A stretch of 64,000 nt of DNA from Candidatus Latescibacterota bacterium (lineage in GTDB: Bacteria > Latescibacterota > UBA2968 > SICM01): NCBI GenBank assembly GCA_965217865.1, contig CBDCJO010000002.1, forward strand, positions 3,360,001-3,424,000, given 5' to 3'. Below are positions 45,430 to 64,000 of the stretch, in pieces. The position numbers were made by a program, and so were the translations under genes. The notes beneath the pieces were generated by a model. The model was not told the DNA's origin, did no database searches, and saw only the letters and a program-made list of their open reading frames with translations. The first letter of the stretch is position 1. Each line of letters starts with the position of its first letter.

Positions 45430-45437
45430 TCTCAACG

Positions 45438-46894
45438 ATGTGCGGTATCTTTGGATATTTCGGCTCAAGGCTCGCCTATCCGCTTCTCCTGAACGGTTTG
45501 CAACGCCTTGAATACAGGGGCTATGATTCAGCGGGTTTATCCGTGATCGCCGACGGCCTCAAGACGGTCAAGGCGGTCGGGAAGGTAAAGAACCTGGAGG
45601 AACGGCTGAAAGCGGAGCCGGTATCCGGAAAAGTTGGAATCGCTCACTCCCGCTGGGCAACACACGGCATCCCCACAGAGCAGAACGCCCATCCCCATCA
45701 GGATTGCCAAGGCAAGATCGCTCTTGTCCACAACGGCATCATCGATAATTTCAAGTCCCTAAAAAGACTTTTGGAAGCCGAAGGCCACACCTTTGTGTCC
45801 GACACGGACAGTGAAGTCGTCGCGCACCTGATCGAAGAATTTTACGAAGGGGAGCTCGAAGATGCAGTTCGGAAGGCGGTCCTGGAGATTGAAGGTACAT
45901 ACGGGTTGGTCGTGATTCACGAGCAAGAGAAAAAGATGGTTGCAGCAAGAAAGGGAAGCCCTCTGGTTCTGGGGATCGGGGAGGATGAGTATTTTGTCGC
46001 ATCCGATCCGACAGCGATCGCCGAACACACTCGGAATGTGGTCTATCTCGAGGACTTGAATGTTTTGACGGTTGACGAAAGCGGCTACCGGGTTACGGAC
46101 CCCACGAATGTGCTGGTCGACCACAAGGTTCAGGAGATCACGTGGGAGATTGAGGAGATCGAACGGGGAGCGTTCGATCACTTCATGCTCAAGGAGATCT
46201 TCGAGCAGCCCGCCCGAATTCAAGACACCTGCCGAGGCCGGATGAATCCTTTCAAGGGAGAGGTCTATCTGGGAGGCCTGAGAGAGGTTTCAAGCCGGCT
46301 CTCGAAGGCGAGGAGGATCATCATCTCATCCTGCGGTACCTCCTGGCACGCCGGACTCGTTGGGGAATATCTCCTTGAATCCCTGGCAAAGGTCCCCGTG
46401 GAGGTGGAATATTCAACGGAGGTCGTGTGCAAGGAGCCCATGCTTGGCCCCGGGGATGTCATGATCGCCGTCAGCCAATCGGGGGAGACCGCGGATACCC
46501 TGACCGCCCTTCGCTTTGCCGCGTCTCGTGGGGCCCTGACGCTTGGGATGGTGAATGTAGTCGGCAGCAGCATCGCAAGGGAGACGGATGCAGGTGTTTT
46601 TATCCACGTCGGACCGGAGATCGGGGTGGCCAGCACCAAGGCGTTCACCGGACACCTCACCGCCTTCGTGTTGCTTGGGATCTATCTCGGGGGTCTCAGG
46701 GGTAACCTGGATGTCGGCAGGGCGAAGCAGATTTTAAAGGAGCTTGGGCGTATTCCCGCATATATCGATAGCATTCTCGCTCGAAACGAGGAGATCCGTG
46801 AGATCGCCCGAATCTATTCGGAGAGTTCAAATTTCCTTTACCTTGGTCGCGGCATCAATTTTCCCGTAGCCCTTGAGGGGGCCCTTAAATTGAA
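45438..46894 (+). pseudogene. glmS: Glucosamine-6-phosphate synthase, C-terminally truncated
   Basis: MCGIFG, LEYRGYDSAG, HSRWATHG, SQSGETADT, VASTKAF. Homology stops at ALEGALKLK; the frame runs on to 47123 in unrelated sequence overlapping the GNAT gene. Confidence 0.9.
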
Positions 46895-46954
46895 GACAAG
46901 CCCCGAAACCTGGCAAAGGCCGTCACGGTGGAGTGAAATTGGGGACTCGGACAG

Positions 46955-47422
46955 ATGGAATATCGATTGGCAATCGATTCGGATGCCCCCGGGATCGGAG
47001 AGGTCCTGGTCCAATCCTATAATATCGACACCAAGGAGGAGGGGACTTCCGCCTTCCGAGAGGAAAGCCGCAGGGGCATTCATTACGTGGTGGCGGTCGA
47101 AGAGGGAAAGGTGGTGGGATTGACCACGTGGCTGCCCCACGGCCTCCCGAAACACGGGCTGGCGGAGCTGGATCGGATTGCAGTCCTTCCCGAGATGCGC
47201 GGTCGGGGCGTTGCGGGCGGTCTGTTCGAGGCCCTGATGGCCGATATCGACAAAGACTATCGGAAGCACGGTTTCGGCCTCCGAAAGCTGTTCCTGATGA
47301 CCCACGCGAACAATCTGAGGGCGCAGGCCTTTTATAAGAAGATGGGATTTCAGGTGGAGGCCACGCTCATGGATCACTTTTATAAAGGGGTGGATGAGTG
47401 CGTGATGTCCCTTGTTCGGTAA
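46955..47422 (+). CDS. GNAT family N-acetyltransferase
   Basis: IAVLPEMRGRGVA, N.RAQAFYKKMGF. Confidence 0.9.
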   Translation: MEYRLAIDSDAPGIGEVLVQSYNIDTKEEGTSAFREESRRGIHYVVAVEEGKVVGLTTWLPHGLPKHGLAELDRIAVLPEMRGRGVAGGLFEALMADIDKDYRKHGFGLRKLFLMTHANNLRAQAFYKKMGFQVEATLMDHFYKGVDECVMSLVR

Positions 47423-50404: not shown

Positions 50405-50510
50405 GGAATCCAGTCAGAAGAGAGGCCACAAGTTACTTGCCCGATTGATTTAAGGTTGACAAGCCCTAGCGTGGTCTCTATATTACTAAGCGCCTCATGG
50501 AGGACTGAAC

Positions 50511-50891
50511 ATGGGTCAGACGCAAGTCCTGTTGATTGTTCTGGTGGTTATTATTGTCGGTATTTCGCTGAGTACCGGGATCACCATGTTCGGCCAGAGC
50601 GCCACGGCATCCAACAGAGATGCGGTCGTTCACGATTGTCAGACCATTGCTTCGTACGCACAGCAGTATTATAAGAAACCTTCAGAGATGGGCGGGGGTG
50701 CGCGCACCTTCACCGGACTGACTCTGGCCAAGTTGAACTGGCCCTCTCCGAATGACAATGGGAGCTATACCTTAACCGTCACCGATCCTCAGAATATCTC
50801 GATCGGGGGCACAGGTGTGGAGTCAGGGGTATCCTGCACCTTGCCCGTGAATGGGACCACGGGCATCGGGGCGCCTACCATAACGCCATAA
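50511..50891 (+). CDS. Type IV pilin-like protein 1 (MG-QTQ N-terminus)
   Basis: 126 aa; hydrophobic N-terminal helix, two Cys; heads a pilC-pilB-pilT cluster. Confidence 0.8.
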   Translation: MGQTQVLLIVLVVIIVGISLSTGITMFGQSATASNRDAVVHDCQTIASYAQQYYKKPSEMGGGARTFTGLTLAKLNWPSPNDNGSYTLTVTDPQNISIGGTGVESGVSCTLPVNGTTGIGAPTITP

Positions 50892-51026
50892 AAATATAGA
50901 TTGGGGATCCGACATAAACAAACTGCACACTTGAGGAGGTGATCCACAGGTCTCTGGGTCGGTTGTTAGATTGCCAGTCGGTATTACAACCCTTTGGTTT
51001 TAGCGTTTTTCCAAGGAGGCAGTAAA

Positions 51027-51407
51027 ATGGGACAAACCCAAATCCTGATGATCGTGCTCGCGGTCATTATCGTTGGCATCGCCGTCGCGGCGGGTATCAC
51101 GATGTTTTCCCAGAGTGCTGTGACGGCCAACCGGGACGCCGTGGTTTTAGATTGCAACTCGATCGCATCGATGTCCATGCAATACTATAAGAAGCCCACC
51201 GAAATGGGGGGGGGAAACCGCACCTTCACAGGATTGACGCTGGCCAAGCTGAATTTCGCTGCCAGTAACAACAATGGAGGCTACACCCTGACCGTGACAG
51301 ACGCCCAGAACATCTCCATCGTCGGGACTGGGGTGGAAACCGGGGTCTCCTGCACGACGCCGGTCAACGGCACCACGGGCATCGGGACGCCCACGATCAC
51401 CCCGTAA
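51027..51407 (+). CDS. Type IV pilin-like protein 2 (paralog)
   Basis: 126 aa from ATG 51027 with AAGGAGG RBS; 96 of 126 residues identical to pilin 1 by manual alignment. Confidence 0.82.
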   Translation: MGQTQILMIVLAVIIVGIAVAAGITMFSQSAVTANRDAVVLDCNSIASMSMQYYKKPTEMGGGNRTFTGLTLAKLNFAASNNNGGYTLTVTDAQNISIVGTGVETGVSCTTPVNGTTGIGTPTITP

Positions 51408-51440
51408 CTCGGGTTTCAAGGCTCGCATGTGCATCAACGA

Positions 51441-51470
51441 AGGGCAGGTCTTCACGGGAGGGCCTGCCCT
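51441..51470 (+). terminator. Stem-loop after the pilin genes
   Basis: AGGGCAGGTC...GGCCTGCCCT hairpin with a weak T-tract. Confidence 0.6.
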
Positions 51471-51612
51471 GAAATTTAAGATAATCGAGGGTCGCTAACG
51501 GCGATTTACGACTGTTTCAACTTGCCGCTAGGTCTAACATATTATTTTTATACGAAATCGCAGGTTACGGTTATGTTTTGGGCTCGGGACTTTTGGACTG
51601 TGACTTTTAAGG

Positions 51613-52963
51613 ATGGGATTCATGCCTGACTTTCGATATCAGGCCGCAAGCGTCAGTGGGGGAATCGTCCAGGGGACGTTGAGCGCATCCAACACGCGGG
51701 AGGCCAAGCGAAGCGTCGAGGATATCTGCGTTAAACGCCGGATGCGCCTGACCAGCCTTCAGAAGCGGTCCACCTTCATCTACAAGGCCCGGCGAGGAAA
51801 CGAAAAGACCTTCAAGGGAGAGCAGAAGGCCTTTTCCAAGGAGGAGGTGGAAAACGCCCTCCGAAAGCTCAACTACCAGGTCCTGAGGGTCCAGAAGAAG
51901 CTGTTTGATTTCAAGCTAAAGCCTCCCACGAAGGATATCGTCCTCTTCACCCGTATATCCGCTGATTTGCTCCGGGAGCGGCTGCCTTACGATGAGATTC
52001 TCCAGCTTCTGGCCAATGATACCGAGAACAAGACCCTTGCGGATACCATCAGGGAGATCCATCAGGATCTCAAAGACGGGAAGGACGGGAAGGCGGTATT
52101 CGGAAAACACACAGATGTTCTTGGAAGATTCACGACCTACATGCTGAGCGTGGCGTCCTCCAGCGGGAATATGGCGGAGGTCTACGAGAGTACGGCCAAG
52201 TTCCTGGAGCGCGACGAGGAGTTCAAGAAGAGCCTCAAGAGCGCTTTGATCATGCCCGCGGTGATCGTCTTCGCCCTGTTGGCGGCGGTCGCTTACTATG
52301 TGGGCTACATCTTCCCGGCAACTGCGGAGATGTTCTTGAAGTTCGGGGTGGACCTCCCCCCGATGACCGCTGCGACGCTCGAGTTCAGCAAATTTCTCAC
52401 AGGAAATGCGATCTGGCTCTTTCCCGCTTGCATCGCCCCGATGGTCCTGCTGGTCGCCTTTTTCACGCGGACTCAGAAGGGGAGGTTGATCCGGGACCGG
52501 TATAATAAAGGTGCCGGTGGTGGGCTCTTTGCTCCACAAGACCAGCATCGAGATCTTTGGGAGGGTTTTCTACGCCCTCTATTCGGGTTCGGGGGAGAAC
52601 ATCACCGTCATTCGAATCGGGGCAGAGGCCTGCCGGAACACCTACATGGAGCAGCAGATCAAGGAGGTGGCCATCCCGATGATGCTCAAGGAGGGAAAGG
52701 GGCTGATCGAGTCGCTGGAGGCGGCCGGGGTGTTCACCCAGAACGCCATCTCCCGACTCCGGGCGGGGGCGGAGTCGGGGGCCCTGCGCACGACCGCCCT
52801 TCAGCTGGCCAACTACTATGAACGAGAAACCACCTATAAGATGAAAAACGTTGTGGAACTGATAAACGTCATTATCTCGCTGTTGATCATGGTCGTCATG
52901 ACCGCACTGACGCTTGTCTCCTCGGAGACGGCGGTGATCACGCCGCCGCCGCCCACAATGTAA
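51613..52963 (+). CDS. pilC: PilC/GspF platform protein, frameshifted near 52503
   Basis: Two T2SSF-like halves (I..DLKDG....VF.KH..V, SGNMAEV; KVPVVGSLL, GAESGAL....QLANYYE) in different frames. Confidence 0.88.
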
Positions 52964-52982
52964 GCCTCCGGGAAATGGAACC

Positions 52983-54758
52983 ATGGCTGAGCTCAAGAAC
53001 CGGATCGGGGAGATCCTCCTGAACAAAGGGATTATCACCCCCGAGGAGGAACGGAAGGCGGCGGAAATTCAGCTCCGCAATCCCGACCGGAAGTTCGGTG
53101 AGATCCTCGTGATGGATCTTGATGTGGACCATCACGCCGTCTTCGGGGAGCTTGCCCGCCTGTACGCCTTCAGGGAAATGGATATCAAGATCGGGGAGGT
53201 GGATGAGGATCGGGTGAAATTTATCAAGGACATTTTCGAAGGTCTCCCTGATGAGGTGCGGGACGAGGCGATCTCCCGACAGGCGCTTCCGTTTAAACCC
53301 GTTGAGGGACAACGGGATGTGCTGATCGTGGTGACTCCCGATCCGACGGATCGGGGGGTTGCGAGCGTGGCCATGCGGTTCGGCTATCGTCGCCCGGAGA
53401 TCTTTTATGCCCGGCTTGATGCCGTTGATGAGCTCCTCAGACGTGTGGCCCCCCCCAAGAACGACCTGCTCGATTTCATAGAGCAGGCCGGCCAGGCCAC
53501 GGAGGTCATCGAGCCCCTGGAAGAGGAGATCGATGAAGAGGCCATCGAGGCCGAGATCAAACAGGGGACGCTTGGGAAGCTTATCGAGGGATGCCTGATC
53601 GAGGGGGTTCGACAGGGTGTCAGCGATATCCATATCGTCCCCCAGGAAGGAAACAGAACGGAGTTCCACTTTCGCGTAGATGGAAATCTCAAGGTATGGT
53701 ACACCCACGAGGGCATGAAACCGGAGGCGGTGTCCGCGGTGGTGAAGGACCGATCGAAGAACGTGGATCGGTTTGAGAGGGACAGCGCGCAGGACGGGTT
53801 CATTCAGCGGGAGATCGACGGCCACAAGATCCGATTCCGGGTGTCGATCATTCCGATGGTGGGTAGCGAATTCGAGCGGAAACTGGAAAGCACGGTCATC
53901 CGGATCCTGGATGACCGGAACGTCGTGACGGATCTCCGGAAATTGGGCCTCCAGCCCAAGGCGATGGAGGACTTCGAGAAAGCGATCACCCGGCCCCAGG
54001 GGATCGTGATCCTGACCGGTCCGACGGGGAGCGGGAAGACGACTACCCTGAACGCCGCGCTCTACTACGTGATCGATCCGACGATAAACGTCCTGACGAT
54101 CGAGGGTCCGGTGGAGTACATCATCCGGGGGGCGCGGCAGCTCAAAATCAGCGACCGCATGACGTTCGACGATGCCCTTCGTGCGATCCTCAGGCACGAC
54201 CCGGACGTCGTCCTCGTCGGGGAGATCCGGGACCTCAAGACGGCCGAGACCGCGATAAAGATGGCAAACACCGGGCACCTGACTTTCGCCAGCCTGCACA
54301 CGAACGACGCGCCGAGCGCGGTCTCGCGGCTCTACAAGATGGGCGTCGAACCGTTCCTGATCGCGAGCGCGGTCAACATCGTCGTGGCGCAGAGATTAAT
54401 CCGGAGGCTGTGCAACGAATGCAAGCGGCCCGCAAAGGATATCGACAAAGGGCTTTACCTCCAGGCCGGGATGACCGAAGAGGAGATCGCGGAGACTACG
54501 ATTTACGAACCGGTCGGCTGCGACAAGTGCAATGACGGCTATAAGGGAAGGTCCGCGATTCACGAGGCCCTTCTGTTCACGAAGGAGATCCGGCATATCA
54601 TTCTCGAATCCGGCGAGGCCGTGGACGAGGGGGCCATTCAGGCCCAGGCGGTCAAGGACGGCATGCTGACCCTGCGCGGCTCCGGCCTTGCCCGGATCAA
54701 AGAGGGCATCTCCACTATTGAGGAGGTCCTCGGCGCCACGACGGGGGAAGAGGAGTGA
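52983..54758 (+). CDS. pilB: PilB/GspE assembly ATPase
   Basis: SDIHI, QDG, GPTGSGKTTTL, LRHDPDVVLVGEIRD, TGHL..SLHTND, CxxC...CxxC. Confidence 0.95.
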   Translation: MAELKNRIGEILLNKGIITPEEERKAAEIQLRNPDRKFGEILVMDLDVDHHAVFGELARLYAFREMDIKIGEVDEDRVKFIKDIFEGLPDEVRDEAISRQALPFKPVEGQRDVLIVVTPDPTDRGVASVAMRFGYRRPEIFYARLDAVDELLRRVAPPKNDLLDFIEQAGQATEVIEPLEEEIDEEAIEAEIKQGTLGKLIEGCLIEGVRQGVSDIHIVPQEGNRTEFHFRVDGNLKVWYTHEGMKPEAVSAVVKDRSKNVDRFERDSAQDGFIQREIDGHKIRFRVSIIPMVGSEFERKLESTVIRILDDRNVVTDLRKLGLQPKAMEDFEKAITRPQGIVILTGPTGSGKTTTLNAALYYVIDPTINVLTIEGPVEYIIRGARQLKISDRMTFDDALRAILRHDPDVVLVGEIRDLKTAETAIKMANTGHLTFASLHTNDAPSAVSRLYKMGVEPFLIASAVNIVVAQRLIRRLCNECKRPAKDIDKGLYLQAGMTEEEIAETTIYEPVGCDKCNDGYKGRSAIHEALLFTKEIRHIILESGEAVDEGAIQAQAVKDGMLTLRGSGLARIKEGISTIEEVLGATTGEEE

Positions 54759-54765
54759 AAAGAAA

Positions 54766-54822
54766 AGCAGAATATAGAATACAGGAGATATTCAAATTCC
54801 TCGGATTCTGTATTCTGTATTC
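54766..54822. repeat. Inverted heptamer hairpin (GAATATA/GAATACA vs TGTATTC)
   Basis: Seen directly between pilB and the next gene. Confidence 0.65.
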
Positions 54823-54854
54823 CGGGGGGGGTGTGCTTCCCCGGGAGGATTGTT

Positions 54855-55238
54855 ATGGGAACAGGCCAGACGCTTCTGGTTCTGGGTGCGGTGGTGATTC
54901 TGTCCACCGTAGCCCTATCGATCAACAACACCCTTTTGAACAACGATCAGATTTCGGTGCAGGCCAACATCACCCTGACCGCGACCTCGGTGTGCCGGTC
55001 TCTTATCGAAGATTATGCGCGTCTCCCGTTCGACTCCCTGGCCGTCGGGACGACACTCCTCAACGTGACCACCCCGATCGCTGCTTTCCCTTGCTCGTTA
55101 TCCGTGGCCTTCGTTCAAGAGAATGTGCCGGACAATCCCGTCATGGGTCCAACGTCCTATAAAAAGGTGAGCGCGATCGCGACGAGTCCCCATCTCAGTT
55201 ACACGATCCAGTTGCACACGGTGATCGCCGACTACTAA
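54855..55238 (+). CDS. Minor pilin-like protein (PilV-like position)
   Basis: MGTGQTLLVLGAVVILS hydrophobic N-terminus; YKKV.V-type strand; GGAGGA RBS. Confidence 0.65.
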   Translation: MGTGQTLLVLGAVVILSTVALSINNTLLNNDQISVQANITLTATSVCRSLIEDYARLPFDSLAVGTTLLNVTTPIAAFPCSLSVAFVQENVPDNPVMGPTSYKKVSAIATSPHLSYTIQLHTVIADY

Positions 55239-55242
55239 AAGC

Positions 55243-55710
55243 ATGCCGAGAGATTTCGACATTCTTCTGAGCGGGTTCTCAGAGCCGGAGCGCAAGGCGT
55301 TCCAACAGATCGGACGGGACAGGGATTTCACGCTTCACAAGATCCTGATACGTGAAGAGGAGGCGGGCAGCAGCATGTTCGTGATCCAGTTGGGAGAGGT
55401 GTCGGTCTGGAGGAAGGCCGTCAAGCTGGCCCGCATGGGTGAGGGGGCGGTGGTCGGCGCCTCGAGCCTGATCGAGCCTCATCCGCGGACCGCCACGGTG
55501 ATGGCGGAGGATTACGTCCGGGCATCGGTATACAGGCGCGAGGATGTGCTCAAATTCTTCAAGGTGCGATCTCCCCGGCTCTTCCAACGGTTCTTCCTGA
55601 ACTCCTTCAGGGCACATATGAACCTTGTCCGGCGGTGCAATGACATCATTCTGGAGATGGAGGGCCGGTTGCGCGAAGAGCTTGCCGTTCAGGATAGGGG
55701 ACAGCGATGA
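55243..55710 (+). CDS. Stand-alone cyclic nucleotide-binding domain protein
   Basis: IREEE.GSSMFVI..GEV.V, GAVVG..SLI...PRTATV.A; no HTH. Confidence 0.85.
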   Translation: MPRDFDILLSGFSEPERKAFQQIGRDRDFTLHKILIREEEAGSSMFVIQLGEVSVWRKAVKLARMGEGAVVGASSLIEPHPRTATVMAEDYVRASVYRREDVLKFFKVRSPRLFQRFFLNSFRAHMNLVRRCNDIILEMEGRLREELAVQDRGQR

Positions 55711-56249
55711 ATGCCTATCTGGATCTGATCTGTTCATTTCTGATCGGGGGGCTCCTCCTCCTGAATGTCCAGCGGATGAACGGGGACCTTGTGACCCGGT
55801 CTTACAATGGGGGAAATGAGTACATCGCCCAGACCAGCGCGGCGACCCTCGCGGAGGTCGTGGAATATGATCTCCAAAAGGTGGGCTACGGTGTGGCCGG
55901 TGCGAAGATCACTTCTGCCGATTCGACAAGCCTTACTTTCTACGCCGACATCGACCGGAACGGGGCGCCGGATTCGATTCGATACATCCTCGGCGGGGTC
56001 CTTCCCCGGACCATGAACCCGTGTGACCGCATGTTCAATCGCCTGGTCAACGCGGAGACTCCCGACAGCATCAGCCTGGGGGTCACGGATTTCCGGTTTA
56101 CTTATTACAATTCCTCGGGGGCGGCCACCAGCACGCTCACCGACATCAAGGGAATTCAGGTGGACATCACGGTGGAAAGCACCGCAGGATACGACACCAC
56201 TTATGCGAAGTCGTTCGTTCGGATCAAGGTCTGGCCGAAGAATCTTTAA
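55707..56249 (+). CDS. Minor pilin-like protein (PilW-like)
   Basis: N-terminal TM, DLQKVGY, LTFYADID..G..DSIRY, V..FRFTYY..G, I.GIQV.ITV. Confidence 0.7.
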   Translation: MNAYLDLICSFLIGGLLLLNVQRMNGDLVTRSYNGGNEYIAQTSAATLAEVVEYDLQKVGYGVAGAKITSADSTSLTFYADIDRNGAPDSIRYILGGVLPRTMNPCDRMFNRLVNAETPDSISLGVTDFRFTYYNSSGAATSTLTDIKGIQVDITVESTAGYDTTYAKSFVRIKVWPKNL

Positions 56250-56272
56250 ATTAGAAATTGTCATCTTGACTT

Positions 56273-57349
56273 ATGGGTAAATATTCTCTCATCGTCGTCG
56301 CGGGTTTCGCATTCACCTACGGCATTATTAACGGTAACCTGAATCGGGGGAACGAACGGTTTGTCGATAATATTGGATCGGATTACAATCGAGCGGTGGC
56401 CGAGTTGGCTGCGCGATCCATGGTCAACCTATCGCTGGGAAAATTAAGGGACAGCACGAGCTGGCGGTCGGGCTATTCAAACCACCCCACCGGCGGGGGG
56501 TTGGGCTGGTCGACGCTTGTCGACAGCACTACGGACACCACGCTGAGCACGGGACAGGTCCGGATCACTGCCGGAGGGTCGAACGGAGAGGCCGCGGATA
56601 CCGTGATCGTGTTGGCCGCACTGCCCGGTCCGGCCGGCATTCCACCAGGCGTGCACGGCGCGATCACGGCGAACTCAACCGTGACGACCCTCGGGAACAT
56701 TGCCATAGACGTTCGCGACCACGACATGAATGGAACGCTGATCCCGGGTCAGGGGTCAAAAGGAATCAGCACCACGCAAACCTACAACCGGGGCGGCAAC
56801 TCGAAGGCGGGGGGCACTTCTTCGGGTACTGATTATGCCCCTTCAAAGCCTGCCGATCCGGCCATCATCGAGGAAAATGCGGCCTATGCTTTTCCCAGCT
56901 CCCCGGACGCCGTGTTCGGTTATTCGGACGGCACACTCAAGGCGATGGCCCAGTCGGGGGAGAACGGGGGCCAGTATGTGACAAATCCTTCGAATCTGAC
57001 TTTTCCCCTCTCCGGTGTGACTTACGTGGAGCTCTCGTCAGGGGGGACCTGGCAGAGCATCGCATTGGGCAGCAGTACGGGTGTTCTCGTGGTGCATAAC
57101 AGCACGGGTGATGCGAGGATCAAAAATATCAACTCAGGGACGTTCAAGGGCCTGCTTATCGCAGACGACATCGACAAGATCCATACGACGATCATCGGAG
57201 CCGCGATCTCCTTGACCACGAGTCCGGCGGGGAACTGCATCGGAAACGGGAGTGGAGAAATCCTCTACAGCAGCGAAGCACTTCAACAGGCGTCCTCGAC
57301 GGCGGCCGGCGGAGGCAGCGGCAGCATAACCGTGTTATCCTGGTGGTAG
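56273..57349 (+). CDS. Large minor pilin-like protein (PilX-like) with Gly/Ser-rich beta-solenoid-like C-terminus
   Basis: N-terminal TM, A..AA.S.V..... helix, G.LVVH, FKGLLIA, terminal LSWW. Confidence 0.65.
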   Translation: MGKYSLIVVAGFAFTYGIINGNLNRGNERFVDNIGSDYNRAVAELAARSMVNLSLGKLRDSTSWRSGYSNHPTGGGLGWSTLVDSTTDTTLSTGQVRITAGGSNGEAADTVIVLAALPGPAGIPPGVHGAITANSTVTTLGNIAIDVRDHDMNGTLIPGQGSKGISTTQTYNRGGNSKAGGTSSGTDYAPSKPADPAIIEENAAYAFPSSPDAVFGYSDGTLKAMAQSGENGGQYVTNPSNLTFPLSGVTYVELSSGGTWQSIALGSSTGVLVVHNSTGDARIKNINSGTFKGLLIADDIDKIHTTIIGAAISLTTSPAGNCIGNGSGEILYSSEALQQASSTAAGGGSGSITVLSWW

Positions 57350-57392
57350 AAGGGATCAATTTCTCAAATTAATGTTCTTCCTGGAGTGAATT

Positions 57393-58604
57393 ATGGAACC
57401 CACCGCCGTTCTTGACAAACTCACCTCACAGATTTCAAAAAACCTCTCCGGTGTGGAGCGGCAGAAGTTCATAGGGGACCTGGTCAATCAGCAACCGAAG
57501 GAGGAGGTCGACGGGTTCAGAGAGGTGATCGATGGCTTTCTCAGGGTGATGGCCACCAAGGGCGCCTCGGATGTCGACATGGGAGGGGAGGGCTCGGGGA
57601 GCCACGTCTGGTATCGGATCTACGGAAAAAAGAAACCGGACGAGAACACAGGACCTTACAATGCGGATCAGATGGATATCCTCCTCCACACCCTTTTGAT
57701 GGAGAGCCAGAGAAACTTCCTGATCGAGCATCGGAATCTGGATTTCTCCTATCACCTGGACGCAGACGGTAAGAGCTACCGCTACCGGGCGGACATGTAT
57801 TTCGACCTGGATCACCTGGCCCTGAACATGCGGTTCATCGACAGCGAGATTCGGCCCTTCAAAAGCATCGAGCTCCATCCGGAGGCCGTGAAGGCCGTGA
57901 CCCTCATCTACGACAGCCAGGGTCTCACCCTCGTCACGGGCATCACCGGCTCCGGAAAGAGCTCGACTCTGGACAGCATCATCGACGCCAACAATCAGAC
58001 GGCCGAAGGGCACATCGTGATCATCGGCTCTCCGATCGAGACGATTCATGAGTCAAAAAAGTGCATCGTCCGCCATCGAGAGGTCGGACGGGACGTGACC
58101 TCCTTCAAAGACGGGGCGATCCAGGCCCTCCGCCAGGACCCCGATATCGTGGTCATCGGAGAGATGCGGGACCCCGAGACGATCCTGACCGGGCTGGAGA
58201 TCACGGACAGCGGCCACAAAGTCTTCTCGACCCTGCACACCGGATCGGCCGTGGAGAGCATCGACCGGATCATCGGGGAGTGCCCCCCGATCGAGCAAAA
58301 CCGGGTCCGGGAACGTTTGGCGGACGTCCTCAAGTGCGCCATCTCTCAGAAGCTCGTTCCGACCCTGGACGGCAAGCGCGCCCTGTGCAAGGAGGTCATG
58401 CTGATGAACTCCTCTGTCCGGGCAGCCATCAAGAACAACAACAGCAGCGAGATCTACCAGATGATGCACGAGGGAAGCGCGGGGGGAATGAATACGATGG
58501 AACAGGACCTCAAGCGCCTGATGGACGGGCGTCGCATCTCTCCGGACACGGCCATGAACGAGGCCAACAACAAGCGGCGTATGGAAGAGTTGTTGAAAGG
58601 ATAA
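57393..58604 (+). CDS. pilT: PilT/PilU-type retraction ATPase
   Basis: GITGSGKSST, HREVG.D..SF....QALRQDPD.VVIGEMRD.ET, GH.VFSTLHT, SQKL.P, GMNTMEQ. Confidence 0.92.
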   Translation: MEPTAVLDKLTSQISKNLSGVERQKFIGDLVNQQPKEEVDGFREVIDGFLRVMATKGASDVDMGGEGSGSHVWYRIYGKKKPDENTGPYNADQMDILLHTLLMESQRNFLIEHRNLDFSYHLDADGKSYRYRADMYFDLDHLALNMRFIDSEIRPFKSIELHPEAVKAVTLIYDSQGLTLVTGITGSGKSSTLDSIIDANNQTAEGHIVIIGSPIETIHESKKCIVRHREVGRDVTSFKDGAIQALRQDPDIVVIGEMRDPETILTGLEITDSGHKVFSTLHTGSAVESIDRIIGECPPIEQNRVRERLADVLKCAISQKLVPTLDGKRALCKEVMLMNSSVRAAIKNNNSSEIYQMMHEGSAGGMNTMEQDLKRLMDGRRISPDTAMNEANNKRRMEELLKG

Positions 58605-58629
58605 TTTCGACCTAAACGTTCGGTGATCT

Positions 58630-59031
58630 ATGGGGCATCGATTCAAAACAACCCTCGTACTATCCCTCCTCGTGTTGTCCTGCTCCTCGAAGGACTCGAG
58701 CACCGGGGTCACCTCGAATGGTGACTACACGCTGATGGTCGTGGTGAATAACCGGAATATCCGCGTGGGGGACAGCATCCCCGTGAATGTCCAGCTCCGG
58801 CGAACGGACAACAGCAACCTCCCTTCCGGTCTGAAGGGAATCATCCTGCTGACGGCCAGCGACAACGGCCTGTTGGCCCAGGGGTCTATCTCCATAGATG
58901 TGGTCGGCAACCGTGTACAGGAAGTTTCGGAAAACATCACGTTTACCGCCTTGAAATCCGGCGTGGCCGAAGTCCGTGCAGCCTTCCAGGACGCCCAGGC
59001 CAAGGTGGATGTGATCATATCGAGTATATAG
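58630..59031 (+). CDS. Small lipoprotein with Ig-like beta fold
   Basis: Lipobox VLSC; beta-rich sequence. Confidence 0.7.
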   Translation: MGHRFKTTLVLSLLVLSCSSKDSSTGVTSNGDYTLMVVVNNRNIRVGDSIPVNVQLRRTDNSNLPSGLKGIILLTASDNGLLAQGSISIDVVGNRVQEVSENITFTALKSGVAEVRAAFQDAQAKVDVIISSI

Positions 59032-59037
59032 AGTCCT

Positions 59038-62004
59038 ATGAGAGATTGGAAAGTCCTAGCGCTTTGCCTCCTTATGGTTTTTTTGGGGTGCGACAAGAGC
59101 AAACCCGCTGCCCCGGAATTGCCTCGCCTGGACGACCTTGTCATCGTGGCGGGTAATAACCAGAGCGCCCTCCCCGGACAAGGCATCTCCGATTCTTTGA
59201 CCGTGCGCGCGGTGGACCAGAACAGAAGGCCTATTGCGGGGGTTACAGTGAATTTTCGCGTGACTTCAGGGGGGGGCAGCCTGTCCGACACAACCCTAAC
59301 CACGAACACAAGCGGTCTTGCGTGGACCCGTCTGACCCTTGGGCCTGTGCCTGGAACGAACATCGTTCAGGCGACTATAGACGGATTGTCGGGGCTTCAG
59401 CCCACCTTCACCGCTACGGCTGTGGGGCCAGCGGATCCTACGGGGGACGGCCCCTCGGTCACACCGGGCGGTCCCACAGCGTCCATCACCTCTCTGGACA
59501 TCGGTCCGGTCACACTCGGGGTGCGGGGTTCCTGTAACCAGGAGACTGCCACTATCACATTCGAGTTGAAAGACGCCGAGGGAAACCCGGCGGCCGACGG
59601 CGAGGCCGTGAGCTTTGATCTGGTTCCGGGGGGGTCGGCCTCTCTCTCGGCAACGAGCGCCACAACGGTTCAGGGACGGGTCTCCGTCACACTCACGAGC
59701 GACACCCTGGCCACGCCCGTCAAGATCACGGCCACCGCCAGGGGAATTATGGGATCCGTCTCCATCCCGATTCTCGGCGGGCCTCCGGACCCGGAGCACT
59801 TCAGCCTGGCTGCCGAAAAGCTCAATCTTCCAGGCGGCGTGATCGCGGGGCTTCAGGACCGAATCACGGCCTTCGTGTTTGACGGGTTTTCCAATCCTGT
59901 CCCCCCCGGCACTTCGATCCTTTTCAGCACCTCTTCGGGGGGCATCGAGGGGTCTGCCCAAACCGGTGAACAGGGGCGGGCTTCAGTCAACCTGATCACT
60001 GCCGCGCCCCTCCCGACGGACGGGTTTGCCATCGTCACGGCCCAAACCGTAGGCCGAGGGGACAGCCTGATCTCGGCCGAGATTCGGATCCTCTTCTCCG
60101 GCGCGACGCAACTGGAGGTTCAACCCGCTACGCTAACATCCGATACCCTTCAAACTCTGAGTTACACAGTGAGGGACCCGAACGGCAACCCTCTCTCCGA
60201 GGGAACCAGGATCCAGGTTTCCGCTCAGGATGGAAGTGTCCTGGGGGACGTGGATATAACCCTTTCGGATAACCAGGGTCAGGGGTCCGGGCTGACCGAT
60301 TTCACTTTTGTACTCCAGAGGTCCCCCGACGAACGGAGCGAGGTGACGATCGATGTGACCTCCCCCAATGGGGACATCAGACGTACCCTTGTGGTGGGCT
60401 CCGTTTCGGGGGGGGCCGGTCCGTCCTCTTTGATCCCCACAAGCCTGAACCTGACCGCTGAAGACGCATCCATACTTGCCGACGGGCTCACCACAACAGA
60501 GGTCACCGCCGTGCTCACCGATGTCGACGGAACGCCGATCCGAGGAAGAGGGGTGGACTTTGTCACCAGCGCGGGCCTGGTCGAGTCATCCGATGTGACC
60601 AACGCGGCCGGACAGGCAAGGGTTTCCCTGACCAGTGCGGCCAGCACTTCGGACCTCCAAGCCCTTGTCCAGGCCTTCTTCGCCGACACCCTCCGGGACA
60701 GTGTCTCTGTGGATATGGTGGGTCTCACGCTCTCGCTAACCGCCACTCCCGATACCATCGCCGCCGACGGAAACGCCCAATCGCGCATCATCGCGACCCT
60801 GGAGGAGACCGTTTTGGGAGCGTCGGTCCCGTTCGCCCCTGTGTCCTTCGAGACGACGGTCGGGACGCTCTCTGCGTCATCCGCCCTGACCGAGACGGAC
60901 GGCCGGGCCACCGTCATTCTCACCAGCCAGCCACAGTCGGGACGCGCGACCGTGACGGCCTCTTACGGACCGGGTTTGACCGACCGACGGCAGGTCGCCT
61001 TTGTCAAGGGACCGCCTGCGAGCATCGTGCTCGTATCGGTGGATCCCCCGGCCATCGGTGTAAAAGGCGCCGGTTCGAACGCCACGGCTTTCATCACGTT
61101 CGAAGTGCGAGATGCCCAGGGTACTCCCGTATCGGACGGAGAGCAGATCGCGTTCACCCTGGATCCCGCGGCCGGCGGGGAATCGGTCGATCCGGATTCG
61201 AGCGCCACGGTCGACGGTCGGGTCCGTATTGCCTTCAACAGCGGAACGATTGCCCGCACGGTGCGGGTGATAGCGACGTGGACCGGAGGCGCCATCTCCT
61301 CAACCCCGGTACCTGTGGCCATCCACGGGGGGCTTCCCTCCCAAGTCAACTTCAGCGTCGCCCCGGAACCCGTAAACCTGGCGGGACGGGTCCTGCTTGG
61401 TCTCGAAAGCACGATCACGGCTTTTGTGTTCGACCGCTTCTCAAACCCGGTGCCCGAAGGGACATCCGTCCGCTTCGGGACCGTTGGCGGGGGTATCGAG
61501 GGGGCTGCGGAGACGGACTCGGTCGGCCAGGCGAGTGTGTTGCTCTTCACGGCTGCACCGATTCCCACCCTGGCAGACAACTTCCTGGCCGTCGTCACAG
61601 CCCAGACGGTGAATGAAGACGGAAACGACATCCAGGCCACGACGACGGTCCTGTTTAGCGGCCCAACAGTCGCCCAGTTGACCGATTCCAGGTTCACAGA
61701 CTCAATCCCGGATACGATCTTCGACGGCGGATCGCTTATCGTCAACTACGCCGTGAGCGATACCAGCAATTTACCGATTATGGGCGGCAGCACCATATCG
61801 GTGACCAGCGATGTGGCACGGGTCGGCGGGCAAGGAGAGGTGATCATCCCCGATGCCCGGAGCGGAAACACCAGTTTCGCCGTAGCCCTCTCAGATCCGG
61901 AGCCGGGGGAGGATCCTGACCGAATCGATACAGGGGTTGTTGTGATCAGAATTGAATCCCTCAATGGGAATTTCCTGTTGTCTTTTTCAGTAACGGTGGA
62001 TTAG
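59038..62004 (+). CDS. 988-aa lipoprotein with multiple Big_1 (invasin/intimin-type) Ig-like domains
   Basis: Lipobox FLGC; repeated D..GNP..G..V.F and T...G.A.V.LT motifs; I.ADG; internal duplication. Confidence 0.85.
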   Translation: MRDWKVLALCLLMVFLGCDKSKPAAPELPRLDDLVIVAGNNQSALPGQGISDSLTVRAVDQNRRPIAGVTVNFRVTSGGGSLSDTTLTTNTSGLAWTRLTLGPVPGTNIVQATIDGLSGLQPTFTATAVGPADPTGDGPSVTPGGPTASITSLDIGPVTLGVRGSCNQETATITFELKDAEGNPAADGEAVSFDLVPGGSASLSATSATTVQGRVSVTLTSDTLATPVKITATARGIMGSVSIPILGGPPDPEHFSLAAEKLNLPGGVIAGLQDRITAFVFDGFSNPVPPGTSILFSTSSGGIEGSAQTGEQGRASVNLITAAPLPTDGFAIVTAQTVGRGDSLISAEIRILFSGATQLEVQPATLTSDTLQTLSYTVRDPNGNPLSEGTRIQVSAQDGSVLGDVDITLSDNQGQGSGLTDFTFVLQRSPDERSEVTIDVTSPNGDIRRTLVVGSVSGGAGPSSLIPTSLNLTAEDASILADGLTTTEVTAVLTDVDGTPIRGRGVDFVTSAGLVESSDVTNAAGQARVSLTSAASTSDLQALVQAFFADTLRDSVSVDMVGLTLSLTATPDTIAADGNAQSRIIATLEETVLGASVPFAPVSFETTVGTLSASSALTETDGRATVILTSQPQSGRATVTASYGPGLTDRRQVAFVKGPPASIVLVSVDPPAIGVKGAGSNATAFITFEVRDAQGTPVSDGEQIAFTLDPAAGGESVDPDSSATVDGRVRIAFNSGTIARTVRVIATWTGGAISSTPVPVAIHGGLPSQVNFSVAPEPVNLAGRVLLGLESTITAFVFDRFSNPVPEGTSVRFGTVGGGIEGAAETDSVGQASVLLFTAAPIPTLADNFLAVVTAQTVNEDGNDIQATTTVLFSGPTVAQLTDSRFTDSIPDTIFDGGSLIVNYAVSDTSNLPIMGGSTISVTSDVARVGGQGEVIIPDARSGNTSFAVALSDPEPGEDPDRIDTGVVVIRIESLNGNFLLSFSVTVD

Positions 62005-62141
62005 AAAAGCCGTGAAACGCTAATAAGCCGTGGATCGTGATTCGTGGATCGTGAATCGAAAAGAACAGGTACCGTGGGATGGGCATGAGTCCCTGATCCC
62101 CGACCCCTGACTTCTGACCTCTGAATCACCAACTCAGTTCC

Positions 62142-64000
62142 ATGAACCTTTTCAGACGAACTCCGAACTCCGCCATCGGCATCTCCGTGGACGGCCTGAC
62201 GGTCAAGGCCGCACATCTCCGCCGTGAGGGCGATCAGGTGGTCCTGGTCGATGTTAAGACTTCCAGGCTGAAGACCCGGTTCGACGTGGAAGGGGAAGCC
62301 GAGGGAGAGGCTGTTGAGCCTGCCGAGGAGGATGTCCTCGGATTGGCGCCGGTCCTGGATGTCCAGGAACCTGCGGCGGAACCGGAAATGCTTGAGGGTG
62401 GGGAAGGAGGAGAGGAGACCAATACCAGCGCTCTCTACGATCTCCTTACCGGTTTTCCGGTCGGTGAGAGCACGGTGGCAATCTGCCTGACAGAGACAAG
62501 CCTTGCCTTGCACGAGCTCCATGGGCTCGAAGAACTAAAAGGGAAACAACTCTGGAAATCGGTCATGGACCAGGTGTCGGCGGCAAAAGGGGGAATCTCT
62601 CCCACCGAAGATCAGATCGACTTCATCAGGACCGGGACGGGCGCCGTGGCGCTGGTTCACGAAGATCGTATGGAGCTCCTGGCCCTTTTGGACGACCTCC
62701 GTCCCTTCTTCGGCACAGTCCGGGTGGGTTTGATCGACGCGAATGAGATCTCCCTGATGAACCTGGTCCGCCGAACCGCACCGAATGACACCCAGGTGAC
62801 CGCGATCGTCTACATCGGAGAGGAGTTCAGCAGGGCCATCTTCATGCGCGGTTCCGATTACCTCGGCCTGACCCAGGTGATCAATGAAGGCGTGAATTCG
62901 TCTCAGGTATTGAACACACTGTTCAGCAGGATCCTGTTCGAGCAGGACACCTCCCATCTCCCGGAGATCGACCGCATTCTCCTGGCTGGTGGGGGGGGTG
63001 CGGTGGATGCAAAGCCCTTTTTCGAGGGACAATTTCCGGATGCCGAAGTGGATTATCTGATTCCATCCGGTGTGGATCTGAATCTGCTCGACGATCAGAA
63101 GAGAGAACAGGTTTCGGAATATGACATCCCTATCGGGCTGGCCTGGAAGGTGCTCGACCCCAAGACGGACCGGTTTTACGGCACGAATTTTCTTCCCAAG
63201 GAACGCAGGCGGCTTCAAAATCCATTTGAAATCGCATGGCACGGTTTGGTCCTGATTAGCCTGATCGCCGGAACCGTCCTGTACTTCGGCTTGAGATTAT
63301 TGGAGCAGGACCGATCCGTAGATGCCCTCAGGCATAGAATCAGCATGAAGGAGCAACAGATCCAGGAGAACAGTCGTTTCGTCAGTTTGGTCGACAGCCT
63401 TCAGGATCAGGTCTTCCGGTACAAGCAGAACCTGTCCGTCACGGACAGTCTGTCAAGCCGTTTTCGGGCATGGGCCCCGCTCCTGAACGATCTCAACGAA
63501 CAGACCCGGGATATCAACTCCTTTTGGATCACAGGATTATCCGAAGGGAAAGAGAGTTTGACCATCATCGGGCAATCGATCTACCGGGACCGTATTCCCG
63601 CGGTCGCCGGGATGATCGAAGGCGCCGAAGTGCGTACCATTACGCGGTCCCAGATTCGCAACAAGGGTCTCTATGAATTCGAGATGGAGGTGAAGTCCTT
63701 CAAACCTCTGTCCGATGTGGAGGGGGTGCCAGCCGTATCAACGGTCGATACGATCGATGCGGGAGAAGAGGGCGATGGACCGGCGACGATAGACCCTGAA
63801 CCGAAGGGGGGGTTCTCCGGGATACAGAACCTGGGAGAAAACCGAGATGGGAAATCGGTGATGGTCCATTCGGAGATCGTCCCGGACTCAAATCCAACGG
63901 ATCTTCATGAAAACGGGCAGGAGGACCGGTACGTCGTTCACGTGGGGATTTTTTCAGACGTGAAGGCCGCCGACCGCCGGGCGGTCCGGCTTTTCCAGAA
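62142..64000 (+). CDS. PilM-PilN fusion with start of a SPOR domain (partial, runs off the window)
   Basis: Manually translated, no stop codon to the edge: AIGISVDG.TVKAA, IVYIG, ILLAGGG, IPIGLA (PilM); TNFLP, TM, coiled coil, FWIT.L...LTIIG.S (PilN); YVVHVGIFSD (SPOR). Confidence 0.8.
   Translation, partial: MNLFRRTPNSAIGISVDGLTVKAAHLRREGDQVVLVDVKTSRLKTRFDVEGEAEGEAVEPAEEDVLGLAPVLDVQEPAAEPEMLEGGEGGEETNTSALYDLLTGFPVGESTVAICLTETSLALHELHGLEELKGKQLWKSVMDQVSAAKGGISPTEDQIDFIRTGTGAVALVHEDRMELLALLDDLRPFFGTVRVGLIDANEISLMNLVRRTAPNDTQVTAIVYIGEEFSRAIFMRGSDYLGLTQVINEGVNSSQVLNTLFSRILFEQDTSHLPEIDRILLAGGGGAVDAKPFFEGQFPDAEVDYLIPSGVDLNLLDDQKREQVSEYDIPIGLAWKVLDPKTDRFYGTNFLPKERRRLQNPFEIAWHGLVLISLIAGTVLYFGLRLLEQDRSVDALRHRISMKEQQIQENSRFVSLVDSLQDQVFRYKQNLSVTDSLSSRFRAWAPLLNDLNEQTRDINSFWITGLSEGKESLTIIGQSIYRDRIPAVAGMIEGAEVRTITRSQIRNKGLYEFEMEVKSFKPLSDVEGVPAVSTVDTIDAGEEGDGPATIDPEPKGGFSGIQNLGENRDGKSVMVHSEIVPDSNPTDLHENGQEDRYVVHVGIFSDVKAADRRAVRLFQ

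Follow-up and report, generated by a model that had tools for sequence, protein, structure and literature searches.

The operon with its first pilin gene at position 50511 of the 64,000-nucleotide stretch analysed here (the window) is read as coding for pilus machinery of a type IVa-like kind, in which the pilins carry no class III leader and are likely assembled without any prepilin peptidase; the probability of this reading is put at about 70%. It would represent a new type IVa-like subtype with leader cleavage probably not involved in assembly. The operon is conserved across many little-studied bacterial phyla, and there is a good chance that it belongs to an ancient FCB-wide subtype of type IV filaments (T4F) which dispensed with both class III leader and prepilin peptidase. 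Such a subtype would use uncut, Glu5-free pilins, a Gln-rich cap (possibly formylated) in place of the salt bridge between Glu5 and the N-terminus, and its own clades of PilB and of a PilT with altered Asp box.

Operon layout and distribution

All genes described within the window lie on the + strand. The five pilin-like open reading frames pointed out in the sequence-only reading are all present, with the N-termini MGQTQVLL (50511), MGQTQILM (51027), MGTGQTLL (54855), MNAYLDLI (55707) and MGKYSLIV (56273). The first two encode the major pilins pilA1 (50511..50891) and pilA2 (51027..51407), both of 126 aa and 76% identical to each other, each with the ribosome-binding motif GGAGG 7 bases 5' of the ATG (50499-50503 and 51015-51019). 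The contigs of RNA run X15 cover only 50898-51435 (pilA2) of the stretch; as they carry neither level nor strand, this coverage was not used as evidence.

The platform protein PilC (51613..52963) has T2SSF domains in both of the pieces into which a frameshift near 52500 splits it in this assembly; compared with the homolog in locus L002 the frame changes at 52503/52502, where runs X6 and X7 have two extra bases. Besides a Zn motif, the extension ATPase PilB (52983..54758; TIGR02538, 3.7e-125) has a weak MshEN-like c-di-GMP motif. It is followed by a minor pilin of a conserved family found in 24 of 80 loci (54855..55238), to which gene order assigns a likely PilV/GspI-like role, by a cNMP-binding protein seen in Latescibacterota loci (55243..55710; PF00027, 1.6e-11), by a second minor pilin with a conserved Asp6, likely PilW/GspJ-like according to its family alignment and Atlas neighbours (55707..56249), and by a large minor pilin whose predicted model is PilX/GspK-like (56273..57349). 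The PilT-family ATPase (57393..58604) matches TIGR01420 at 2.5e-91, with 306.5 bits just under the cut-off of 319.1. Homologs of PilC, PilB and PilT are thus found in the window as first proposed.

Downstream are a small predicted accessory lipoprotein (58630..59031), not conserved across phyla and with zero Pfam families over the cut-off, and a 988-aa lipoprotein with Ig-like (Big_1) repeats, a possible adhesin present in 5 of 80 loci (59038..62004). A PilM-PilN-like fusion occupies 62142..64000, its reading frame ending at 64061. Beyond the window end come a pilO-like gene, which starts at about 64530 (PilO match at 1.1e-05), and a secretin at 65450-66502 (PF00263 in homologs). The secretin is short, with about 410 aa. 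In family profiles the best matches of PilN (3.2e-10) and PilO are Myxococcus T4aP proteins, and zero matches were obtained for PilM and PilP. The proposed PilMN homolog is therefore borne out in its PilN half, while the PilM label goes back to gene position and the initial call. The clustered operon neighbours include no PilY1-like family.

Eight or more FCB lineages carry the operon. In 45 of 80 loci the fetched flank contains the whole set of pilin, pilC, an ATPase, pilMN, pilO and secretin; the full trio of minor pilins is there in only 19. Cultured carriers are Melioribacter roseus (as species) and Stygiobacter electus strain 09-Me (locus L076). The available part of the M. roseus genome paper reports pilT, pilQ, pilB and pilC, but neither pilA nor pilD (PMC3534657), and the available part of the I. 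album genome paper has nothing on pili (PMC3362086). Neither the pilin family nor a peptidase-free T4F was found described in a literature search of main texts that covered few subscription journals; in the supplements of PMC6668835 and PMC4454575 the loci may appear under generic systems.

Pilin sequences and predicted folds

The major pilin family comprises 1,488 clusters at 50% identity. Its members start with Met-Gly-x-Gln-Gln, followed by an uncharged hydrophobic helix of 19 residues and a type IVa head. Of the best 150 matches in a profile search that used no pattern, 139 have Met1 and Gln5; Gly2 is found in 137/140 and Gln3 in 116/140 sequences. The near-invariant Gly2 is also compatible with a cleavage site at Gly-1. 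A hydrophilic leader ending in Gly or Ala, as in class III signal peptides, is missing, with at most Met-Gly preceding the polar cap, and Glu5 is replaced by Gln at the position counted from Met and by Leu or Met at the position aligned by the head.

Upstream in-frame starts that might restore a normal leader are absent from 92 of 97 homologous pilin reading frames, which excludes hidden leaders; stops lie just upstream of most starts and a Shine-Dalgarno-like motif precedes 83 of the 97. In the window itself pilA1 has zero upstream in-frame starts, and starting pilA2 from the TTG at 50994 would not produce a class III leader. Processing by signal peptidase I was considered and rejected on reasoning, as a basic n-region is absent and the hydrophobic stretch is conserved in sequence.

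Pfam and NCBIfam contain no family for the two major pilins or for the minor pilins at 54855 and 56273, and gave only sub-threshold and unrelated matches for the one at 55707. Profile-profile comparison aligned the family with canonical major pilins (probability 89%, ungapped, offset 3), and a PDB sequence search with the pilin profile returned weak matches only, to phycocyanin (by chance) and to Geobacter PilA (E 0.11). According to its predicted model the major pilin has a type IVa fold with a long alpha1 helix and a beta-sheet head: the AF2 model of pilA2 (pLDDT 85.5) consists of a helix from residue 2 to 55 and four strands, and all of its eight best structural matches belong to type IVa pilins (Z 8.4-10.2), the pseudopilins EpsG (Z 5.7) and PulG (Z 4.9) scoring lower. 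Foldseek gave zero matches at E<=0.001 and ranked PAK pilin second (TM 0.63).

Among the minor pilins, the 54855 gene belongs to a family in which 21 of 24 homologs, as called, have Q or E as their fifth residue; of the Atlas neighbours of the 55707 gene, 13% of members have PpdB and 30% have N_methyl. The model of the 56273 protein has a pLDDT of 57.8 overall and of 70-90 in the pilin core; its best matches are ComZ (Z 10.8) and GspK (Z 9.2), with a C-terminal strand completing the sheet. The predicted models thus show pilin folds and not the non-pilin folds that would have spoken against the assignment.

The system shares with the type IVa pili of Pseudomonas, Neisseria, Myxococcus, Thermus and Geobacter (PilA, PilB, PilC, PilT, PilMNOPQ, PilVWX) the predicted pilin fold, a PilB with Zn motif, PilC, a PilT-family ATPase, PilN, PilO, a secretin and I/J/K-like minor pilins. 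It differs from them in having no class III leader, Phe1, Glu5 or Pro22, in the lack of pilD in most carriers, in an N-terminal helix about three residues longer, in the fused PilMN, long PilO and short secretin encoded in one compact operon, and in separate clades of PilB and of a PilT with altered Asp box. Archaeal type IV pilins and archaellins, which are processed by PibD/FlaK and often free of Glu5, resemble it in the missing Glu5 and the polar start of the hydrophobic helix; in contrast to the present system they have a cleaved leader and a peptidase. Neither a PibD/FlaK peptidase nor a pilin of archaeal type was found: A24 is absent, and head fold and motors are of the bacterial T4aP type. 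The initial comparison with archaeal G|Q starts has weak support, since it is Gln5 that is fixed, and residue 3 can be T, S, N, Y or others.

Prepilin peptidase in the genome and in other carriers

A prepilin peptidase was found neither in the window, as noted in the sequence-only reading, nor in the whole genome, whose assembly consists of 2 contigs and is 96% complete. PF01478 gave 0 matches at E<=1 (12 of 14 controls were detected), and tblastn with 10 FCB PilD queries, one of them a 79-aa fragment, gave nothing better than E 0.013. Canonical pilins (PF07963), which could have served this machinery from elsewhere, were not found in the genome either, and its only T2SSE ATPases are the two of the operon.

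In 50 carrier genomes pilD was detected in 20, N_methyl in 20, both in 19 and neither in 29, a sample that includes non-independent relatives, so that a Fisher test on it overstates the association. The pilD gene went undetected in 30 of the 50, and 19 of the 20 pilD-positive carriers also have canonical class III pilins; in the fetched loci pilD adjoins canonical pilins or ATPases. At least two T2SSE ATPases are kept in 28 of the 29 carriers without pilD and N_methyl, and the motor is absent in some carriers (G038, G056, G176). Within the phylum of the present genome pilD was found in 0 of 12 other carriers, one of which is a single contig and 98% complete, and in a sample of the class Ignavibacteria it was detected in 8 and undetected in 55 of 63 carriers. 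Most carrier genomes are MAGs, and since G051 and G024 carry a canonical-type ATPase without detected pilD, the gene can be missed in fragmented assemblies. The clustered neighbours of the operon include no peptidase-like family. With leaderless subunits and, in most carrier genomes, no detectable pilD, assembly of the pilus probably dispenses with leader cleavage.

It is improbable, though the best placed of the alternatives, that an unrecognised protease cuts off a two-residue Met-Gly leader and creates a Gln-1 start like that of some archaeal pilins, possibly with pyroglutamate neutralising the N-terminus. Such cleavage would fit the conserved Gly2 and Gln3 of the major pilins, the recurrence of GQ in many PilV-like and of GK in PilX-like minor pilins, and a M. 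maripaludis pilin reported with a lactam-cyclised N-terminus in the accessible part of PMC4471445. Against it, none of the A24, SPP and A22B protease families is over cut-off in the genome, in an A24 search that does detect archaeal controls. The genome has 10 GxGD membrane reading frames, 8 of which belong to non-protease families; one unassigned frame was not found in 5 other carriers, in a search run with no positive control. The variable residue 3 also argues against such a cut, as does the missing Gly before Gln5 in several minor pilins (SAQ, GAQ, NLQ, GSQ) and in the PilW-like family. Methionine aminopeptidase preference also accounts for the conserved Gly2. Of the two options first offered, a two-residue leader or a bypass of PilD, it is accordingly the bypass that is favoured.

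Motor ATPases, proposed mechanism and significance

In a quick SH-aLRT tree in which long branches meet, both PilB and PilT fall into separate clades of their own on long stems, in agreement with a distinct T4F subtype as first suggested. The PilB clade seems to lie apart from the sampled PilB/GspE/MshE group (support 91, from this quick tree with its long branches and small number of references), and PilT groups with PilT/PilU on a stem of length 2.17. The Asp box IIGSPIE, noticed at the outset in place of TIEDPIE, is a clade-wide variant, II[AG][SA]P[IV]E: its first acidic residue is lost in 58/58 and its second in 57/58 sequences, while the last Glu is kept in 58/58, the Walker B Glu in 58/59 (one truncated), and Walker A Lys and His box are retained. 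In the accessible part of PMC5424180 only one Asp-box glutamate, which coordinates Mg, is fully conserved across the family. By its spacing from Walker A this residue maps to the last Glu of the present PilT, and the clade therefore appears to keep the Mg-binding and catalytic glutamates despite the altered box.

A little less probable still than the protease is that the leaderless pilins serve protein secretion as a short endopilus in the periplasm, or else make up a fibre that does not retract; the divergent PilT would then be a weak ATPase or a regulatory one. The long PilT stem and lost acidic residues would suit this, as would the short secretin and the missing PilY1-like family, and a T4aP-derived secretion system has been proposed for Bacteroidetes in the accessible part of PMC6668835. 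Type II secretion pseudopili, including that system, share the compact operon, short secretin and GspK-like minor pilin. However, the conserved PilT motifs, a pilin head closer to T4aP pilins than to pseudopilins, and the best matches of PilN and PilO to Myxococcus T4aP speak for a pilus. Nor are the marks of type II secretion (a GspE ATPase, no PilT, a GspG-type pseudopilin) found, as a PilT-family gene is present, PilB branches outside GspE and a class III signal is absent. An artefact of mis-called starts, of canonical pilins and pilD elsewhere, or of a decayed locus is largely refuted: frameshifts break pilC, in this strain only, and apparently also pilO and the start of the secretin gene, and the PilB Asp box of the strain reads TIEG, but the pilC and PilB defects are not present in runs X6 and X7, in-frame stops lie close upstream of most homologous starts, canonical pilin and pilD are absent from the 96% complete genome, and the gene set is kept in 45 of 80 loci.

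For the peptidase-free pilus the following mechanism is proposed. SRP/Sec would insert the pilin as a signal anchor. A short polar Gln cap would remain at the cytoplasmic face instead of a charged leader, and the residues that follow the helix, which are slightly acidic, would face outward. N-terminal processing would be of the housekeeping type only, either removal of Met exposing the conserved Gly2 (about 55%) or retention of formyl-Met (about 45%). With no charged leader anchoring the subunit in the membrane, cutting would be unnecessary. The I/J/K-like minor pilins may form a cap that primes assembly, and PilB and PilC may extrude the filament through the secretin. Canonical E5A pilins fail to form homopolymers, according to the accessible part of 10.1101/459388, so that the absent Glu5 would need compensation; hydrogen bonds of the Gln cap could replace its salt bridge to the N-terminus, in a core helix with roughly one extra turn. 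Retraction of the fibre would fall to PilT, whose presence suggests the term retractile, and the likely use would be surface attachment or twitching.

The accessible parts of reviews define type IV filaments by a class III signal peptide and its removal by a dedicated peptidase that is counted among the ancestral core (PMC10191384, PMC4471445). Given leaderless pilins and mostly no detectable pilD in the carriers, the leader cleavage regarded as universal in such filaments is likely skipped here, which, if true, would remove one of four 'universal' T4F core components. A leaderless pilin system would explain the apparently incomplete pilus set of Melioribacter roseus, and would imply that signature-based tools miss this pilin family. 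As cultured carriers exist, N-terminal mass spectrometry and cryo-EM are feasible, and with a natural machine that has neither leader nor peptidase it would become testable why extraction of pilins from the membrane needs leader removal and Glu5.

Locus and predicted pilins

Two major pilin genes (126 aa each, N-terminus MGQTQ) lie on the + strand from 50511 onwards, both with GGAGG 7 bases 5' of the ATG. They are followed on the same strand by pilC, pilB, three minor pilin-like genes (ORFs at 54855, 55707 and 56273), pilT, two accessory lipoprotein genes and a PilMN-like gene; a pilO-like gene and a secretin gene come next, just outside the window end. A cNMP-binding gene (55243-55710, +) sits among the three minor genes. 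Protein clustering places pilin, pilC, an ATPase, pilMN, pilO and secretin all within the flank in 45 of 80 homologous loci.

None of the five pilin-like proteins exceeds a Pfam or NCBIfam family cut-off. The AlphaFold2 model of the major pilin (81-sequence alignment, pLDDT 85.5) consists of a helix at residues 2-55 and four strands; among 48,161 PDB representatives, type IVa pilins account for each of its best eight matches (Z 8.4-10.2). Foldseek returned no match at E<=0.001. A pilin fold, and no non-pilin fold, is predicted. The 358-aa minor pilin is modelled with low confidence overall (57.8), with a pilin core matching ComZ (Z 10.8 over 88 residues, rmsd 1.8) and, at Z 9.2, GspK. Atlas neighbours of the 180-aa minor carry PpdB (13% of members) or N_methyl, the canonical class III pilin signature (30%), and the 127-aa minor is assigned from gene order alone. 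Together the three minors look like an I/J/K priming set. The sequence-only reading had named five pilin-like genes beside PilC, PilB, PilT and PilMN; the machine genes are present, the last as a PilMN-like gene, and the fold matches agree for the major pilin and the 358-aa minor. Some pilin homologs carry the automatic JGI label 'PilE'. The pilin head domain also occurs, sometimes in multiple copies, in larger proteins (P0086, P0089, P0107 and P0216) whose N-termini are ordinary signal sequences or look like those of lipoproteins.

The assembled pilC shifts frame near 52500, and the PilB Asp box of this assembly reads TIEG (Asp-to-Gly, window 54106). Both changes are absent from sequencing runs X6 and X7, whereas X2, possibly the source data, has both; they belong to the strain or the assembly and do not characterise the family. 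The pilO gene and the secretin start, just past the window, appear frameshifted too, so that the locus in this strain may be decaying or mis-assembled. A large lipoprotein with Big_1 repeats, encoded within the operon (59038-62004) and a possible adhesin, is found in only 5 of the 80 loci, several of these Latescibacterota. The PilMN C-terminus (63900-64000 and beyond) shares with the next ORF a duplicated segment which we take to be SPOR-like. Outside the operon, at 45351-47422, a presumably glmS-like ORF seemingly loses its C-terminus where a small ORF (46955-47422), presumably acetyltransferase-like, overlaps. Second-messenger control is suggested by a weak c-di-GMP motif of MshEN type in the N-terminal part of PilB (52983-53120), by the cNMP-binding gene and by a cNMP/receiver-like gene directly past the secretin; in Ignavibacteria loci pilQ is followed by a response regulator and a histidine kinase.

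Leaderless N-termini

A genome scan with the N-terminal motif gave at least 495 confirmed stretches, from which 79 loci were kept (Latescibacterota, KSB1, Ignavibacteria, Calditrichota, Marinimicrobia, Kryptonia, Gemmatimonadota and Cloacimonadota). No in-frame start lies upstream in 92 of the 97 MGQxQ ORFs of these loci; in most, a stop codon precedes the ATG by no more than about 11 codons, and 83 are preceded by an SD-like motif. Because the scan had used the motif, a pattern-free profile search was added, which counted 1,488 clusters at E<=1e-10. Met1 and Gln5 (counted from Met) occur in 139 of the best 150 of these. Among the 140 sequences of the best 150 that match M-x-x-x-Q/E, Gly2 is present in 137, the variable residue 3 is Gln in 116, and a charge occurs anywhere within positions 1-24 in only three; the remaining ten include partial or fused forms. 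A PilV-like minor (L005:18886-19377) begins MGSRE, so that Glu takes the place of the family's Gln at position 5.

Profile-profile alignment of the leaderless majors with 11 canonical ones of the same phyla needs no gap (offset 3, probability 89%) and pairs Gly17 with Gly14 and Leu8 with Glu5; Pro22 is absent from the leaderless family. Gln5 thus stands at the N-terminal distance of Glu5, yet the helix would be about one turn longer than the canonical one when measured from the head. The mean net charge of residues 25-40 (-0.5) is compatible with a head-out topology. The absence of a basic class III leader and of Glu5, noted in the window, extends to the family.

Motor ATPases

In a quick, bootstrap-free IQ-TREE run on 76 ATPase cores with SH-aLRT support, the 26 PilBs of the operon group together (99, stem 1.07) and fall outside the canonical PilB/GspE/MshE group as sampled (91), and the 19 operon PilTs make up a second clade (100, stem 2.17) among PilT/PilU; deep placement is unsure since long branches meet in this quick tree. 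The altered PilT Asp box noted in the window is common to the clade: the first acidic residue is kept in 0 of 58 and the second in 1 of 58, and the last Glu in 58 of 58. Also retained are the Walker B Glu, the His box and a pattern that we take to be arginine-finger-like. A passage in PMC5424180 describes one fully conserved, Mg-coordinating Asp-box glutamate, to which the retained Glu corresponds by its spacing from Walker A. An active PilT is plausible from the retained Asp-box Glu, Walker B Glu and His box. In three loci (L012, L050, L059) a further paralog from the operon PilB clade is encoded upstream of the pilins, and the in-operon PilB of L012 and L059 has an altered His box (AALHAV).

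Prepilin peptidase, assembly and classification

The lack of a prepilin peptidase in the window holds for the whole genome (6.43 Mb in 2 contigs, completeness 96%, contamination 9.3%): Peptidase_A24 has no match at E<=1 (the control was positive in 12 of 14 genomes, with archaea among them), A24_N nothing over cut-off, and neither an N_methyl pilin nor a class III motif was found. The only T2SSE (PilB/PilT-type) ATPases are the two of this operon. Among 50 carrier genomes, picked by hand from those of the 79 loci to span taxa, 20 have pilD, 20 N_methyl, 19 both and 29 neither, and 28 of these 29 encode two or more T2SSE ATPases; pilD is thus missing from 30 of 50. In the regions fetched, where pilD is present its neighbours are class III pilins of the canonical type or a second ATPase. 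Five of six single-chromosome records are without pilD, one of them (G038) with a broken operon, its locus L054 keeping the pilins with motors broken or not found. The pilin is carried by 13 of 140 genomes of the own phylum, and pilD is found in none of the 12 other carriers (two of which duplicate genomes within the set of 50); one, G057, is a single contig, 98% complete, with both motors. In the class Ignavibacteria (completeness requested at 95%) 63 of 121 genomes carry the pilin, five overlapping the set of 50; all eight pilD matches fall among these carriers, leaving 55 of 63 without. In carriers G051 and G024 a canonical-type ATPase is present and pilD went undetected, so fragmented MAGs can hide pilD; in G056 and G176 the pilin was found and the motor was not.

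The sequence-only reading had offered a two-residue leader or a bypass of PilD, and the bypass fits better. An archaeal-style cut after Met-Gly by a protease distinct from A24, SPP and A22B is unlikely: it requires an unrecognised protease, and the Gly is not retained in the minor pilins. SPP and A22B gave nothing over cut-off in 5 genomes. Ten membrane ORFs contain a GxGD motif, eight assigned to non-protease families and two without family, one of the latter not found in 5 other carriers; the clustered proteins of the 80 loci include no conserved peptidase-like neighbour.

The leaderless genes, the complete machine, the pilD distribution and the predicted fold point to a type IVa-like pilus likely assembled without prepilin peptidase. 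An uncharged Gln cap would hold the pilin N-terminus on the cytoplasmic side but leave it unanchored, which would make cleavage unnecessary. Housekeeping enzymes would act in one of two ways: by removing Met, as the conserved Gly2 favours, or by leaving it in place as formyl-Met. Deformylation of membrane proteins can be blocked by SRP (PMC5454389), and a formylated N-terminus would make Glu5 unnecessary. As canonical pili are described in part of 10.1101/459388 as needing Glu5 for assembly, compensation for its absence is the least supported step.

A passage on M. roseus (PMC3534657) notes pilT, pilQ, pilB and pilC, with pilA and pilD absent, and judges the set probably incomplete; leaderless pilins are found in an M. 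roseus MAG (L038). A passage on Latescibacteria mentions type IV pili genes without detail (PMC4454575), the main text of PMC6668835 names neither Ignavibacteria nor Rhodothermus, and in the literature searched no description of this pilus system was found. The class III signal and peptidase are treated as core features in passages of PMC10191384 and PMC4471445. The system resembles type IVa pili in machine components and predicted pilin fold, but lacks both the class III signal and the prepilin peptidase that define the type IV filament superfamily. It is, as the sequence-only reading had suggested, best filed as a new subtype of type IV filaments.
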